Of a stretch of DNA of 36,947 nucleotides, positions 24,401-30,400 are shown piece after piece (position 1 is the first letter of the stretch; every line of letters begins with the position of its first letter). The position numbers were made by a program. The DNA comes from Fidelibacterota bacterium (GTDB lineage Bacteria; Fidelibacterota; Marinisomatia; Marinisomatales; UBA2128). Location: positions 1 to 36,947 of the forward strand of contig JBHHUM010000018.1 in assembly GCA_046861645.1 (NCBI GenBank). Direction: 5' to 3'.

Positions 24401-27400
24401 CTCTCGGTTTCCTGTGGTTCAACTCTCGTCCCGCGGAGGTTTTTATGGGTGATACTGGTTCCCTCGCCATGGGCGCCGCTATAGGTGGTGTAGCCATACT
24501 CCTGAAGAAGGAATTCCTGTTACCCTTCGCTGCTGCCATCTTTATTGTTGAGTCTTTCTCCGTGATACTTCAAGTCCAGTATTTTCGGTACACCAGACGA
24601 AAATATGGTGAAGGAAAACGACTTTTTCTGATGGCACCACTTCATCATCATTTTGAGCTTAAGGGGTGGGCCGAGAGCAAGGTTGTTATACGCTTCTGGA
24701 TTCTTGGAATTCTTTTTGCATTGATGAGTTTGAGCACTTTCAAAATACGATGAATCCTTGGTTAAATACACCCCGCCCTCATCTAAAGGACAAGAGGGTT
24801 ACAGTACTTGGTGGTGCGCGCAGTGGCATGGCTGCCTGCCGTCTTCTAACCAAAGTGGGAGCTACCATTTTCCTCTCCGATCAGCGAGAGCCTGGAAAAT
24901 GGGTTGATAAAAGAAAAGAATTGTCTCGATTAGGCATCGAATCAGAAATAAATGGTCATAGTGAGAAATCATTGGAGGCTGATCTGATCATTGTCAGCCC
25001 AGGAGTCCCACAGGATGCGGAGATCCTCACCCAGGCCGGCGAGAGGGGCATCCCCATAGTTTCTGAAGTGGAACTGGCAAGCTGGTTTACTACATTGCCC
25101 ATTGCAGCAATTACCGGTTCCAACGGCAAAACTACTACCACAACTATTCTTGCCGAAATGAGTCGTCACGGAGGGTACAAAACCTTTCTCGCCGGCAACA
25201 TCGGGTTCCCTTTTTCCGATGCCGTGCTTACTACACTTGATGATGAACCAACAAACGGTCTGTTCGTACTGGAAATCAGCAGTTTCCAGATGGAACATAT
25301 CCTGTACTTTAAACCCTATATTGCCATCCTCCTGAACCTCACCCCAGATCACCTGGATCGTTACCCAGATTTCGACACTTATGCTTCCGCAAAAATGAAT
25401 ATCCTGAAAAATATGACGGAGGAAAACTGGGTTGTATATAATGAAGACGATTCTGGACTTCTACCCTATCTCCAAACGCAAGCACAAAAGGTACCTTTTT
25501 CGCTTTCCCGTTCACCAAAGACTCTTTTCACATTAAATGAGACCAAAATCTACGATGAGAAAAATGAGATTGTCGTTTATCTGAAGGATATTTCCATTCC
25601 AGGTAAACACAACCTTTACAATTTCCTGGCAGCTGCCACTGCCAGCCGACTCTTAGAGATCAATTCTAATCAGATCGGAGAAGTAATTACTTCATTTCCT
25701 GGAGTTGAACACCGTATCGAATTCGTCAAAGATATCGATGGTATTGTGTTCTACAATGATTCCAAGGCAACTAATGTCGATTCTGTGGCGGTTGCGCTTC
25801 AGGCATTCGATAGACCGATCATTCTCATCATGGGAGGTCTTGATAAAGGAGGTGACTTTTCTCTGTTAGTACCACTAATTAAATCCTCGGTTAAAGCGAT
25901 AATCCTCGTGGGTGCTGCTGCAGATCTCATCGCTGAAGTATACTCTGGTGTTGTCCCCCTCCAAAATGCAGTTACCATTCAGAATGCCGTGGAAATGGCC
26001 TGGCAATCCGCCCAACCAGGGGATGTTGTACTCCTTTCCCCGGGTTGTGCCAGCTTCGACCAGTTCGATAATTACGAAGAGAGAGGAAAAGTTTTCAAAA
26101 AGACAGTGAACGATCTGAAGAGGATTGTAACATGAGTATAGTTATTTCATCAAAAAAATATGACCTCCCCCTTCTGATCCTGACTGGACTTCTGTTAATC
26201 GTGGGAACAGTAATGGTCTTCAGCGCCAGTACCAATATTTCGGTAGATAAATACGGCATTGGTACTCATTACTTCTGGAAGCATGTTTTAAGAGTTCTAG
26301 CAGGAGTTATAGCTCTGATAATAAGTATCATGGTTGATTACCGCCTCCTGAGAAAGGTAGCTGTACCCCTCATTATGGGAGCTGTTGTAATGCTGACCAT
26401 TACCAAACTCTCCTACATCCTTCGGGGAAGTAACGCTCCCGCTCGGTGGTTAAATTTGGGGTTGATCTCACTTCAGACATCAGATATCGCCCGTTTTTCA
26501 ATAATCGTATACCTCGCTGCATATATTGATCGGAAACGAAATCAATTGAGAAATTTTTCTGACGGATTTCTACCTCCCATCGTACTGATTGGTATTATTA
26601 TGGCTCTCGTAATTATTCAACCTGACTTTAGTACTGCATTCATCATAGGAGTGATCACATTTGTAATGCTTTTTGTCGGAGGAGCCAGGTTATCCCATTT
26701 ATTTGCTACTGTCAGTGTCGCCAGTGCTATTTTGATACCCGTTTTGTTCCTGGCTGAGTATCGAGTATACCGCTTGACATCATTTGGAGATTTTTCAACT
26801 GAACTGGTGGGAAAGAATTATCAACTTCAGCAATCACTCATCGCCCTGGGTAACGGTGGTATTACAGGAGTAGGATTAGGCGAAAGTATCGGGAAAAATC
26901 TTTTTCTTCCTGCTCCACATACCGATTTTATCCTTTCTATTATTGGAGAAGAACTGGGTTACCTTGGTGTATTCCTGGTGATTACTCTGTTTCTCGGACT
27001 TTTTCAGCGAGCCGTCACTATTGCCAAAGGTTGTACAGATGTTTTTGGAATTCTTCTTTGTCTTGGTTTTTCCGTAAAGATCGTTCTTTATGCATTCATA
27101 AATGCGGCGGTAGCATCAGGTTTACTTCCCACAACGGGTCTACCCATACCATTTATCAGTTTTGGTGGTACAGGGTTGGTCATCAATCTGATAACCGTTG
27201 GCATTTTACTAAACATTTCCATGGCTAAACGGAGAGCTAAAACACCTAAATCAACGAGGATACTCTTTGCCAGATAAGCATCTAAAAGTAATCATTGCTG
27301 GCGGCGGGACAGGAGGCCATCTTTTCCCAGCTTTTGCTATTGCTGACACACTGAAAAGTCACTATCCCAATGGTGAAATCCATTTCGTGGGTTCTAAACA

Positions 27401-30400
27401 TGGTGTGGAAGTAGAACATTTAACAAAACGAGAAGAACGTTTTACACTCCTGAACATACGGGGATTTCAAAGAGGATTCTCTCTTCGTTCCCTGGGCAGA
27501 AATATGCTCTTTCCACTTCGTTTCCTGACTGCTCTTATTTCTTCTCGGAGATTGATGAAGAGATTCAAGCCTGACGTAGTTGTAGGAACCGGCGGTTATG
27601 CCAGCGGTCTTCCCCTCTTAGCAGCTTACCAGCAGGAAATACCCACTTTGATTCACGAACAAAATTCATATCCTGGATTCACCACCCGCTGGTTAGCAGA
27701 CCGTGTGGACACAGTTTGTATCAGTTACGATGAAACAAAACACTATCTTAAAAAAAAAAGTGCCTGCTTACCGGCAATCCCATCCGTAAGGATTTATTGA
27801 CAATGACTCGTGAGAATGCTTTGATAAGCCTTGGTTTCCGTCAGGATAGACCTGTGGTGGCCATCATTGGAGGAAGTCAGGGTTCTCGTGCCATTAATAG
27901 TATCATTCAACAGACTTTACCTTTGTTGCAATCCGAATGCCATGTGCAAGTCTACTGGCAGACAGGTCCCGATCAGTACGAAAAGTTGGCAACTTATAAC
28001 CGTAATGACGTAAAAGTTGAACCCTTTTCTAATAATATGGGGGCAGTCTATACTGCGGCTGATCTTATCATCTCCAGAGCTGGAGCCATGACTTTGTCTG
28101 AAATTACGGCTTGTGGAAAACCTTCCATACTTATCCCCTTTCCAGGAGCTGCTGCAGATCATCAGACTAAAAATGCCGCCACGTTAGTTGCTAACGGAGC
28201 AGCAAGGATTATCCCAGAGTTCGAGCTGACACCGGAAAAACTTGCCGACGAAATCATCAAACTCCTGAAGGGTGAGAAAGTTCTTAAGGAAATGGCTAAA
28301 GCTGCTCAAAGAACTGCCATTAATAACGCTGCAGAAAGAATAGTCACTGAAATTGAAAGGTTAGCTCAGGCATAATGTTTGGTAAAGTAAAAAATGTATA
28401 TTTTGTTGGAATCGGTGGTATTGGTATGAGTGGAATTGCTGAATTACTGATTAATTCCGGTTTTGGAGTAGCAGGTTCCGATCTGGTATCATCGGAAATC
28501 ACTGCTAAACTGGCTCGGAAAGGAGTCACTATTCATCAGGGACATAAAGCAGAAAATCTTGGGAATGCCGATGTGCTCGTTTACTCGTCTGCAGTGAATG
28601 AAAGCAATCCAGAAGTTGTCGAAGCTAATAGAAGAAAGATACCGGTTATCTCCCGGGCGGAAATGTTGGCAGAACTATTGAAACTCAAACCTACCTCAAT
28701 AGCCGTTGGTGGAACACATGGAAAAACTACCACTACTTCTCTGCTAGGGACCGTCTTGACCCATGCCGACCTTGATCCCACACTCATTGTGGGAGGGGTA
28801 GTAAAGAGCCTTGATGTAAACGCAGTCTTGGGTAAAGGTGAAATAATTGTAGCGGAAGCAGACGAATTCGATAGAAGCTTCCTTCATCTGACACCTACTT
28901 ATGCTATTATTACAACAGTCGATCATGATCATATGGAATGCTATCAGGATGAGCATGACCTCGTCCACTCCTTTGCTCAATTTGCAAATGCTGTTCCCTT
29001 TTATGGCGCAGTTTCTGTATGTATGGATCAATCTCTTATTAGCAAGGTTATCCCCTATATTTCCCGTCCATTGATAACCAGTGGCATGTCTGTAGAAGCG
29101 GATTATTCAGCAGCTCATATTGTATTCGATCAGACAGCCACTACTTTTGATCTTTTACAGAATGGGTCACTCTTGGGGACTCTAAACCTCCAAATTCCAG
29201 GGATACATAATGTAATGAATGCCATGACTGTTACTGCACTTTGCCTGGAGATGGGAATGGATTTTGATACTATCGCTCAAGGGATGCAATCATTCACCGG
29301 TGTACGACGGAGATTTGAAATAAAGGGTAAATTTGACGATATATTAGTTGTCGATGATTATGCCCACCATCCAACTGAAGTAGGTGCCACACTGGAAGCT
29401 GTACGAAAAGCATGGAAACGACGTATTATTGCCGTCTTTCAACCTCATCTTTTCTCTCGAACACGGGACTTTTATCAGGATTTCGCCTCAGCCCTGACCA
29501 TTGCTGATTGTATTATTATTACCGATGTTTACCCCGCCCGGGAACAACCCATCGCAGGAGTGAATGGTAAATTAATTGTTGACGCCGCTATATCCCTGGG
29601 ACATGATAAAGTACACTGGATTCCCCAAAAAACAGATATTCCTGCCAGGCTGTTAGAAATGGTTAATTCAGGTGATATTGTTATTACTATGGGAGCAGGT
29701 GACATCTGGAAAATGGGAGACGAATTCGCTACCCTTTTAGAACAGGAAGTTGTGGTGGTTTGATGTGCCTAAATCAAGCAAAATGGCGGCAACTGAAAGA
29801 TTGATGAAAATCATGCACGGTGAGACGTTGATAAACGAACCTATGTCGAAACATACAACCTACGGGATTGGAGGTCCTGCCTTAGCTTACTTCTATCCAG
29901 CAGACAAAGAAGATCTCACCGCCATCCTAAAAACTGCCCACAAGGAAGCAATTCCTCTTTTCTTCACGGGATCAGGATCTAATTTACTGGTGAGTGATAA
30001 TGGTTATGATGGATACGTGATCAGCCTGTCCAGGCATTTCCGGAAAATTGAATTTGAGGGTACTCATGTTTCTGTGGAAAGTGGGGTCATGATGGGTCGA
30101 CTGGTACGGGAATGTATCCATCGGAATCTTTCTGGAGTGGAGAGTCTTATCGGAGTACCTGGAACGGTGGGTGGTGCTCTTAGGATGAATGCAGGAGCAT
30201 TTGGATATGAAATATCGAACTCACTGGTCAAACTCAACGTTGTAACTCTCTCTGGTGACCAGAAAGAGTACTTAAAGGAAGAAATTGATTTTGGTTATCG
30301 CTATTCATCCCTAAAGGATGATGAAATAGTGATCTCAGCATCTTTTGAATTTCAGATTGGTTCTCCTGAAAAGATTAAGGATTTACGGAGACGTTCCAGC

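Follow-up and report, generated by a model that had tools for sequence, protein, structure and literature searches.

A conserved frame break at a poly(A) run in murG of Fidelibacterota, and the case for full-length MurG by slippage

Results

The murG locus

The window analysed here, a 36,947-nt stretch of DNA comprising positions 1 to 36,947 of contig JBHHUM010000018.1 (assembly GCA_046861645.1, order Marinisomatales), carries murG in single copy between ftsW and murC in the dcw cluster, as expected of a member of the MurG family. The upstream dcw-cluster gene ftsW (26132..27277, forward strand; PF01098, E 6e-91) overlaps the start of murG by 11 nt, and the ATG of murC (28375..29763, forward strand) shares one base with the stop of murG (TAATG). 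The sole murG matches in the 2.51-Mb genome, which is 94.5% complete, are an N-half and a C-half located at 27267–28375.

The N-half frame (27267..27800, forward strand) has a TTG start, comprises 177 codons and stops at a TGA (27798–27800). It is matched by PF03033 (E 1e-30) and by positions 4–158 of the TIGR01133 profile (127.7 bits), and encodes, in this order, the lipid-acceptor domain with the sequence GGGTGGH, the residues KKK and an out-of-frame tail of 13 residues; GGGTGGH corresponds to the GGxGGH loop of the N-terminal GT28 domain as it is described in PMC8993221. The C-half frame, which specifies the UDP-GlcNAc-binding domain (27752..28375, forward strand; stop TAA at 28373–28375), is matched by PF04101 (E 6e-43) and by positions 157–352 of TIGR01133 (176.9 bits), and its product aligns to residues 156–348 of PDB entry 3s2u, to residues 158–356 of 1f0k and also to 7d1i. 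No single open frame reaches the TIGR01133 equivalog cut-off of 250.25 bits, while the scores of the two halves sum to 304.6.

The two profile matches meet without a gap at an uninterrupted run of ten A (27750..27759, forward strand), a putative slip site that is preceded by CTT and starts at phase 0 of the N-frame codons (AAA AAA AAA A). In the C frame, the T that ends CTT and the two A that follow it make up a TAA (27749..27751, forward strand), so that this frame opens exactly at the run, an arrangement found in 21 of 27 split genomes (see below). The C frame is -1 relative to the N frame, and the change sits in the linker between the two Rossmann-like domains. Sequence and profile matches thus agree with the preliminary description of this locus, which had placed a murG frame change at CTT plus A10 in the inter-domain linker.

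Downstream of the run, the codons for G-N-P-I-R (27773..27787, forward strand) are read in the C frame, upstream of every ATG, GTG and TTG of that frame. The Arg of this motif corresponds by offset to Arg164 of the Escherichia coli enzyme and, according to PMC8554846, is needed together with Glu269 for UDP-GlcNAc binding by a sensor based on E. coli MurG. The motif is followed by a stop-start junction (27788..27805, forward strand) at which termination-reinitiation might give rise to a separate C-half; it is composed of a Shine-Dalgarno (SD)-like AAGGA (27788–27792), a TTG (27797–27799) that overlaps the N-frame TGA, and a C-frame ATG (27803–27805).

Occurrence of the frame break among relatives

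In a sample of 110 genomes of the order with both murG halves readable on one contig (G066, with murG over two contigs, and G095, with murG at a contig end, were excluded), 83 were fused and 27 split, each of the latter in the -1 phase. All 14 genomes that had earlier been named as split are among the split ones, with their run classes as first given (A9 in G002, G018 and G023, and A10 in the other 11) and with the same distance of 20 nt from the codon before the run to that preceding G-N-P, as against 18 nt and 21 nt in the fused comparators G009 and G008. A scan of all GTDB species returned 62 murG matches, 37 of them out of frame, and added 17 split species, while five additional split genomes belong to other orders and classes. 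The spread over several families first proposed therefore holds, and was understated, as the break also occurs elsewhere in the phylum, in other orders and classes. In all, 49 genomes at species level are in the -1 phase, with record titles that point to many assembly series of different names; the +1 phase was found in none of the sets compared (0/110, 0/62 and 0/6). The spacers measure 17, 20 or 26 nt, all being 2 modulo 3.

The split state is uniform in genera g1 (4/4) and g29 (3/3) and in g3, g4, g13, g18, g19, g22 and g34 (each 2/2), whereas the gene is in frame with a run of A9–A10 in g9 (4/4) and g32 (3/3). In the MurG tree of 110 rows six state changes are needed, five of which are forced by well-supported branches, and the tree of 144 rows requires eight; in one clade of 14 rows, 13 are split. 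The break is accordingly old.

Selection on both halves and on the run

For 12 split pairs compared within genera, dN/dS ranged from 0.05 to 0.33 in the N-half and from 0.07 to 0.25 in the C-half, a range equal to that of fused pairs, with dS reaching above 1. Both murG halves are under purifying selection. Across the 27 split genomes the G, N, P and R of G-N-P-[VI]-R are invariant and V/I is conserved, with free synonymous change (4, 2, 4, 5 and 6 different codons at G, N, P, V/I and R, respectively), and the entropies at the first, second and third C-frame codon positions are 0.97, 0.56 and 1.61. In 20 of these 27 genomes there is no ATG, GTG or TTG between the upstream stop of the C frame and this motif. 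Judged by its codon pattern, the C frame is under protein-coding selection and is predicted to be translated from the run onward; such constraint upstream of the adjoining start codon is unlike what would be expected of a split, two-chain GT-B enzyme. Two deviations were seen: in family f21 (G132 and G138) G-N-P is preceded, at a distance of four codons, by a start-capable codon, such that a split gene alone could keep the motif there, and in f25 the R of the motif is replaced.

The run itself is A9 or A10, uninterrupted and at least 9 nt long in all 33 split genomes found by HMM without a run-based filter, and it begins in register with the N-frame codons (phase 0) in 27/27 split genomes. Genome-wide such runs are rare: only 3 of 106 KKK triplets in long open reading frames are written as A9, where approximately 23 would be expected at an AAA usage of 60%. 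The genome avoids A9, and the murG run is kept.

Start codons at the N-frame stop

A start codon behind the run, raised as a caveat in the preliminary description, proved to be a recurrent feature. Of the 27 split genomes, 23 have a start codon between -2 and +5 nt relative to their first N-frame stop, in 20 cases an ATG; among the 83 fused genes, when read in the corresponding virtual frame, the number is 12, including 5 with ATG. Inclusion of the further split species, 15 of 17 of which possess such a start, brings the figure to 38/44, with ATGA, TAATG and TGATG among the junctions; G101 and G114 have no nearby ATG. Expressed by position, a start-capable codon occurs at G-N-P+10 or G-N-P+13 in 38/44 split rows and in 1/100 fused rows, and an SD-like motif precedes the +10 start in 18/27 split as against 21/83 fused genomes. 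When phylogeny is considered, the association has few independent origins and comes down to six independent pairs, about three to four of which point in the same direction (sign test p 0.06–0.6).

Discussion

Since the frame break is old, constant in phase and followed by a C frame that is constrained from the run onward, synthesis of full-length MurG by a -1-type recoding event is the best reading of this locus. Because G-N-P-[VI]-R is constrained where no start precedes it, and because the run is never shorter than 9 nt or interrupted, this full-length product also appears to be under selection. On balance we judge it probable that murG is truly out of frame at the linker run and that a slip joins both frames into full-length MurG, most likely through RNA polymerase adding one A in a share of the transcripts (A10 to A11), which would give the product ...YLKKKKCLLTGNPIR... 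Uncorrected messages would yield the N-domain with a short junk tail. Ribosomes that slip by -1 on A_AAA_AAA without a stimulator may add to the full-length product. The sequences themselves show the frame break with its phase, age and spread, and the coding constraint on both frames; the slipping machine, the share of full-length product, reinitiation and any function of the fragments are inferred. Slippage by the polymerase is favoured because the run has the length of the RNA-DNA hybrid and stays at or above 9 nt in 33/33 genomes, and because a ribosomal stimulator was not found; a run of nine A or T is given in PMC5009743 as the threshold for efficient transcriptional slippage in bacteria, which mostly adds bases, and this bias fits a phase that exclusively needs one added base.

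The preliminary description had proposed either programmed -1 ribosomal frameshifting or the addition of one A by RNA polymerase, with a ratio of full-length MurG to a free N-domain that might be tunable. If most full-length MurG came from programmed -1 ribosomal frameshifting, the P-site and A-site Lys-tRNAs would slip back one base on A_AAA_AAA, the mRNA would keep its A10 and the ratio of full-length protein to N-fragment would be set at translation. The site is a valid one for such an event, as the heptamer (X_XXY_YYZ) is in zero-frame register in all 27 split genomes and the shift required is -1 in every case, with a product identical to that of one extra A. Both tRNA-Lys(UUU) and tRNA-Lys(CUU) are encoded in the genome, which says little for or against a ribosomal slip. 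The signals typical of programmed ribosomal frameshifting were, however, not found: the consensus fold of the site contains two trivial invariant pairs without covariation and hence no conserved downstream stem-loop or pseudoknot, the comparison of split genomes revealed no conserved SD-like or purine block upstream, the fold computed for the site was no better than shuffles (z +1.1), and Rfam returned no match. In E. coli dnaX, a -1 programmed ribosomal frameshift takes place on A_AAA_AAG with the aid of an upstream SD sequence and a downstream hairpin; murG shares with it a slippery heptamer of Lys codons and the -1 direction, but not the stimulatory SD and hairpin, for which the site was searched. 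A heptamer would moreover suffice for the ribosome, yet the run never falls below 9 nt. While the slip itself is retained from the earlier proposal, the ribosome is in our view rather unlikely to be its principal agent.

A second alternative dispenses with slippage altogether and regards MurG as a two-chain enzyme, assembled from the N-half and from a C-half started at the ATG by the N-frame stop. The stop-start overlaps of the split genomes are what would be expected of a truly split gene, and the SD-like motif is commoner ahead of the +10 start in such genomes; in f21 the start even precedes G-N-P. MurG-like enzymes that are naturally split at this linker are, in addition, described in PMC8993221 (EpsE/EpsF and Alg14/Alg13). 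Against this stand the 20 of 27 genomes in which the invariant motif lies ahead of any same-frame start and still evolves as coding sequence, including the Arg on which, with Glu269, substrate binding by the E. coli sensor depends (PMC8554846). The A run, needless in a split gene, has likewise remained uninterrupted despite dS above 1 and the avoidance of A9, and the spacer never leaves the -1 phase. We therefore consider a MurG made solely as two chains unlikely. The overlap of stop and start, newly seen here, rather suggests termination-reinitiation as a second route, next to the slip, by which a separate C-half may arise: ribosomes would terminate next to, or partly within, a C-frame start codon (in the present genome TTGA, with an ATG 3 nt later) and probably reinitiate, which would keep the rest of the operon translated and yield a free C-domain.

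Homopolymers are error-prone, and under-calling of a run that is really one A longer, in an intact murG, would also produce one constant phase. The genomes are without exception assemblies of metagenome or single-cell type, the run lengths were read from contigs, and G114 is a single-contig genome, possibly derived from long reads. The earlier count of 12 runs of at least 9 A or T in this genome is correct, to which three runs of C or G may be added. Eight other A/T runs of this length are in frame inside long open reading frames, six of them inside a Pfam domain match extending across the run; another two sit at natural gene ends. At the same murG site A10 or A11 has been assembled in frame in G008, G077, G063 and genus g32, while A10 is present in four further metagenome contigs of the genus under study. 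Chance or error is disfavoured because these other runs are in frame, because A10 and A11 are in frame in other genera and because those four contigs all carry A10. Per-run contigs of X1–X3 show no gap at the run, and contigs of run X4 break at 27702 and 27750. As the phase is common to all 49 genomes, as split and fused states follow phylogeny and as a matching stop-start feature is present in the split lineages, an artefact is very improbable. A recently decaying pseudogene is scarcely credible for the sole murG of a genome, given low dN/dS and the lack of further stops in both halves and a split state kept across families and classes. A phase-variable on/off switch, such as might be read into the run lengths assembled within g8 (A9 versus A10) and g28 (A10 versus A11), is on the same grounds improbable, and A10 was read in all four species of the genus under study, in the four metagenome contigs and in contigs of three runs.

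The nearest precedents for slippage at murG are the conserved poly(A)/poly(T) frameshifts of the insect endosymbionts Buchnera and Blochmannia, which are rescued by transcriptional slippage (PMC3017870, citing primary work; PMC4350177). There as here, a single indel lies within a run of at least nine A, the gene is intact in all other respects and may be an essential one, and the frameshift persists between species without decay of the gene; the full-length product is attributed in these accounts to RNA polymerase, and about 30% corrected transcripts are quoted. Two of the features that define such homopolymer frameshifts, a run of approximately 9 or more at a break between intact reading frames and its retention between species without decay, are both found in murG. 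The endosymbionts are described as having tiny, extremely AT-rich genomes subject to drift, with more than 100 long runs in coding regions, whereas the murG hosts are free-living marine bacteria of 2–3 Mb and 43% GC that avoid A9, and the device concerns one gene only, spread over families and classes and combined with a stop-start overlap.

Slippage at a homopolymer of hybrid length without other signals is also known from Thermus thermophilus dnaX, where, following PMC5009743, a 9-base A/T run gives a mixed mRNA pool with added A's and two products from one gene. In that gene the unslipped frame encodes the full-length protein and the slipped one the short form; in murG the order would be reversed, as an essential enzyme needs the slip. 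The interrupted tssM gene of Citrobacter rodentium, rescued by transcriptional frameshifting (PMC4256274), likewise belongs to a free-living bacterium, but is an accessory secretion gene of a single species, while murG is a core cell-wall gene out of frame across a phylum. Alg14/Alg13 and EpsE/EpsF are broken at the same inter-domain linker into halves that are adjacent genes; these firmly established gene pairs (PMC8993221) have neither a homopolymer nor a shared coding overlap, unlike murG, where the C frame remains under constraint in the stretch that follows the break.

The out-of-frame state may even be selected and not just tolerated, a tentative proposal that we hold to be possible but unlikely. 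Three products would then arise from one gene, namely full-length MurG from slipped transcripts, a free lipid I-binding N-domain and a reinitiated C-domain. The A run would serve as a rheostat: both the supply of MurG, the last cytoplasmic enzyme of peptidoglycan synthesis, and translation of the dcw genes further downstream would follow the rate at which the polymerase slips, and through it nucleotide pools or the growth rate. On this reading abundant deep-ocean bacteria would have retained, or arrived at anew, such a layout throughout a whole phylum.

Out-of-frame essential genes rescued by slippage are known mainly from the degenerate genomes of endosymbionts; in murG the device would serve a core gene of cell-wall synthesis, in marine bacteria that are free-living and abundant worldwide, and there the split state is stable over a divergence at which synonymous sites are saturated and is always in the phase that one added A corrects. 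Annotation pipelines report such a locus as two genes or as a pseudogene, which can mislead inferences on peptidoglycan synthesis and gene counts in metagenome-assembled genomes. The site furthermore represents a clean natural test case for transcriptional versus ribosomal slippage, and allows one to ask whether a GT-B enzyme works as two chains.

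Organisation of the murG locus

In the window, murG is located between ftsW (26132-27277) and murC (28375-29763) and is divided over two frames that meet at a slip site consisting of CTT and A10 (27750-27759), the C frame being the N frame minus one at this run. The N-half, which comprises the lipid-acceptor domain part, extends from a TTG at 27267 to a TGA at 27798-27800 and matches PF03033 and TIGR01133 positions 4-158, while the frame of the C-half, the UDP-GlcNAc-binding part, opens at a TAA (27749-27751), ends at a TAA (28373-28375) and matches PF04101 and TIGR01133 positions 157-352. 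The TIGR01133 scores of the N- and C-halves (127.7 and 176.9 bits) are each below the cut-off of 250.25 when taken alone, and no murG match besides these two halves was found elsewhere in the genome (2.51 Mb, 94.5% complete). Alignment places the C-half on residues 156-348 of the Pseudomonas aeruginosa MurG (3s2u) and 158-356 of the Escherichia coli MurG (1f0k), so that the break maps to the inter-domain linker. The addition of one A, or a -1 slip on A_AAA_AAA, would generate a joined product reading ...YLKKKKCLLTGNPIR....

The dcw genes overlap in the window, as the TTG of murG is situated 11 nt inside ftsW (27267-27277) and TAATG (28373-28377) comprises both the stop of murG and the start of murC. 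Exact-protein matches were obtained for the N-half on four contigs and for the C-half (from its ATG start) on one, with two near-identical members on three more, although these add no independent evidence.

Distribution of the split state

The order sample comprised 121 genomes, 112 of which contained murG; 109 fetched loci and the window provided 110 genes for comparison, G066 (murG spread across two contigs) and G095 (locus at a contig end) being omitted. At the common site, murG is out of frame in 27 of these 110 genomes, always in the -1 phase, and in frame in the remaining 83, while the +1 phase was not encountered. All 14 genomes that the preliminary description had named as split are among the 27. 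The split state follows phylogeny: every member is split in genera g1 (4/4), g29 (3/3) and g3, g4, g13, g18, g19, g22 and g34 (2/2 each), and an in-frame A9 or A10 is present throughout g9 (4/4) and g32 (3/3). Long runs in fused genes were further observed in G008 and G077 (A10) and in G063 (A11).

A scan of GTDB, employing one genome per species and the pattern A9-N13-15-GGNAAYCCNRTNMG, which is also able to catch +1-phase spacings, returned 91 stretches. Among the 80 that were fetched, 18 were not murG and 62 were, the latter being divided into 37 genes in the -1 phase and 25 read in frame, with none in the +1 phase. The 37 out-of-frame loci carry the titles Marinimicrobia, Neomarinimicrobiota, Fidelibacterota, ‘FCB group’ or ‘uncultured bacterium’ and derive from assembly series with many different names; 17 represent species absent from the order sample. 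Seven murG matches outside the phylum (loci L112, L128, L135, L137, L158, L168 and L186, with A9-A11 at the common linker), belonging to a gammaproteobacterial MAG, Flavobacterium xylosi, Thermodesulfobacteriota, Chlorobiota, two Zixibacteria and Patescibacteria, without exception read in frame. A runs seem to develop readily in the Lys-rich linker of MurG.

When sampling was extended to the phylum (121 genomes, 97 from outside the order), six more split genomes came to light in other orders and classes (G162, G193, G126, G131, G132 and G138). Each is in the -1 phase and has a run of A9-A10; the spacers measure 17, 20 or 26 nt, lengths that all equal 2 modulo 3. As G193 was already among the 17 additional GTDB species, the species-level split genomes amount to 49 in total. 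In family f25, the split murG of G126 (L217) and G131 (L218) encodes GNPVN or GNPVM, the otherwise invariant Arg being replaced, and the fused murG of G104 (L074) contains one TAA within the HMM match of an otherwise in-frame gene.

Age and coding constraint

Mapped on a 110-row MurG tree, the split state requires six changes, five of which are forced by well-supported branches, and 13 of the 14 rows in one clade are split; a FastTree phylogeny of 144 rows gave eight changes. Within genera, dN/dS values of 0.05-0.33 (N-half) and 0.07-0.25 (C-half) were obtained for 12 split pairs, and of 0.00-0.13 and 0.05-0.44, respectively, for 10 fused pairs, three half-values of the latter being saturated. 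Between split species that retain the run, dS reaches values above 1.

Directly after the run, the C frame of all 27 split genomes of the order encodes the motif GNP[VI]R, in which V/I is conserved and the remaining four residues never vary, employing 4, 2, 4, 5 and 6 different codons for the five successive positions; the entropy of this frame by codon position is 0.97, 0.56 and 1.61, and the N-frame tails vary freely. The C frame is opened by a run-derived TAA in 21 of the 27, and in 20 it is devoid of ATG, GTG or TTG from the upstream stop to GNP[VI]R. By offset, the Arg of this motif corresponds to E. coli Arg164; one report describes loss of the UDP-GlcNAc response in an Arg164Ala/Glu269Ala double mutant of a sensor based on E. 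coli MurG (PMC8554846).

The run is uninterrupted and at least nine residues long in 33/33 split genomes that were found by HMM and not by a run-based pattern. The genome under study otherwise avoids A9 for KKK, with three instances among 106 KKK triplets in 1021 long ORFs at 60% AAA usage. Taken together, the age of the split state, the dN/dS values, the constraint on the C frame and the kept run indicate that a product read from the N frame through the run into the C frame is under selection.

Stop-start junction and possible separate translation of the halves

The first N-frame stop is positioned 11-21 codons past the start of the run in the 27 split genomes, except in G101, where it is 48 codons away. 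In the window, a TTG (27797) overlaps the TGA (27798) and is followed by an ATG at 27803, with AAGGA ten bases upstream. The rival explanation, in which the MurG halves would be translated separately and function as two chains, gains real weight from this adjoining of C-frame start and N-frame stop in split genomes, given that a natural split at this linker is described for the MurG-like enzymes EpsE/EpsF and Alg14/Alg13 (PMC8993221).

The N-frame stop abuts or overlaps a C-frame start (ATGA, TAATG or TGATG) in 23/27 split genomes (20 with ATG) and in 15 of the 17 further split species, as compared to 12/83 (5 with ATG) in the virtual frame of fused genes; a start-capable codon at +10 or +13 after the G of GNP occurs in 38/44 split versus 1/100 fused rows, and an SD-like motif before position +10 in 18/27 split versus 21/83 fused genomes, but these counts are not independent, as they comprise only six phylogenetically independent pairs. 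In approximately three to four of these six pairs the start-codon trait changed in the same direction, and the sign test was not significant. The stop-start feature is lacking in split G101 and G114, and fused G063 has it in common with its split sister G056.

A MurG that is made solely as two chains is difficult to reconcile with the constraint on GNP[VI]R, which lies upstream of the start, with the kept A run and with the fixed phase. In family f21, which belongs to another class (L219 of G132 and L220 of G138), the N-frame TAA directly follows A10 and a C-frame ATG (G132) or GTG (G138) is found four codons before GNP; since a start-capable codon thus precedes GNP, a separately started C-half would retain GNP[IV]R and the split alone could suffice there.

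The internal junction of murG resembles those between genes of the operon, namely the ftsW/murG overlap and the TAATG of murG/murC. Returning to a joined MurG as the selected product, we read the stop-start junction as putative termination-reinitiation on uncorrected messages, whereby reinitiation would maintain translation of the operon and give rise to a free C-domain, and the reinitiated C-half would begin with N-terminal MTRENALISLGFR.

Homopolymers and the question of an assembly artefact

The genome harbours 15 homopolymers of at least nine residues, including the 12 of A or T that had been counted previously. Eight other A/T runs of this length are in frame within long ORFs, and in six of these the run is covered in a single frame by a Pfam domain match (TonB-dependent receptor, methylmalonyl-CoA mutase, aspartate-semialdehyde dehydrogenase, GH130 enzyme, histidine kinase and IS110 transposase), while two further runs are at natural gene ends; murG is the sole gene broken at such a run. 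Logan contigs of DNA runs X1-X3, which represent one sample that is possibly the window's own source, bridge A10 without gaps; X4, from the same study, has no contig over 27703-27749. A10 is also present in 4/4 further metagenome contigs of the same genus.

The IS110-family transposase (PF01548, PF02371) on contig C106 (1.9 kb) has an in-frame A9 at its two-domain boundary (758-766), and shortly before its ORF there is an A10 (101-110). A run of C9, or G9 on the opposite strand, at C178:7672-7680 and C184:10303-10311 is part of an apparently non-coding repeat of ~45 nt common to both contigs, which might represent a repeat element carrying a phase-variable tract; another C9 is located at C66:3118-3126.

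Candidate slippage mechanism

Analysis of the 27 split sequences identified neither a conserved RNA structure at the run, where two pairs are invariant and covariation is absent, nor a conserved block upstream of it. The window fold at the run is no better than shuffles (z +1.1), no Rfam family matched at E <= 1, no terminator-like site was detected and promoter-like sites are at chance level. According to PMC5009743, nine A or T residues constitute the threshold of efficient slippage by bacterial RNA polymerase, mostly by base addition, and slippage in Thermus dnaX gives about half of each product; in endosymbionts, as PMC3017870 reports, frameshifted genes have ~30% of their transcripts corrected.

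Judged from sequence, RNA-polymerase slippage adding one A fits the murG run in view of the minimum length of nine, the lack of stimulators and the fact that the phase is exclusively the one which ‘needs one more A’. The preliminary description had proposed either this or a -1 ribosomal shift; stimulators of the latter were not found, but the A_AAA_AAA heptamer is in register in 27/27 split genomes and a ribosomal slip may thus contribute. Both tRNA-Lys(UUU) and tRNA-Lys(CUU) are encoded by the genome.

Relation to known systems

A literature search retrieved no paper tying murG to slippage or frameshifting, and nothing relevant on frameshifting in Marinimicrobia. One candidate, PMC4350177, was rejected as it deals with asnB and argI, ‘murg’ referring to the insect genus Murgantia. 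Among known systems, those most similar are the poly-A frameshifts conserved in Blochmannia and Buchnera, dnaX of Thermus and tssM of Citrobacter rodentium. In contrast to these, the host in the present case is free-living and avoids such runs, the frame break is accompanied by a stop-start overlap, the state is spread over a phylum, and the gene concerned is a sole-copy core cell-wall gene whose essential product would need the slip.
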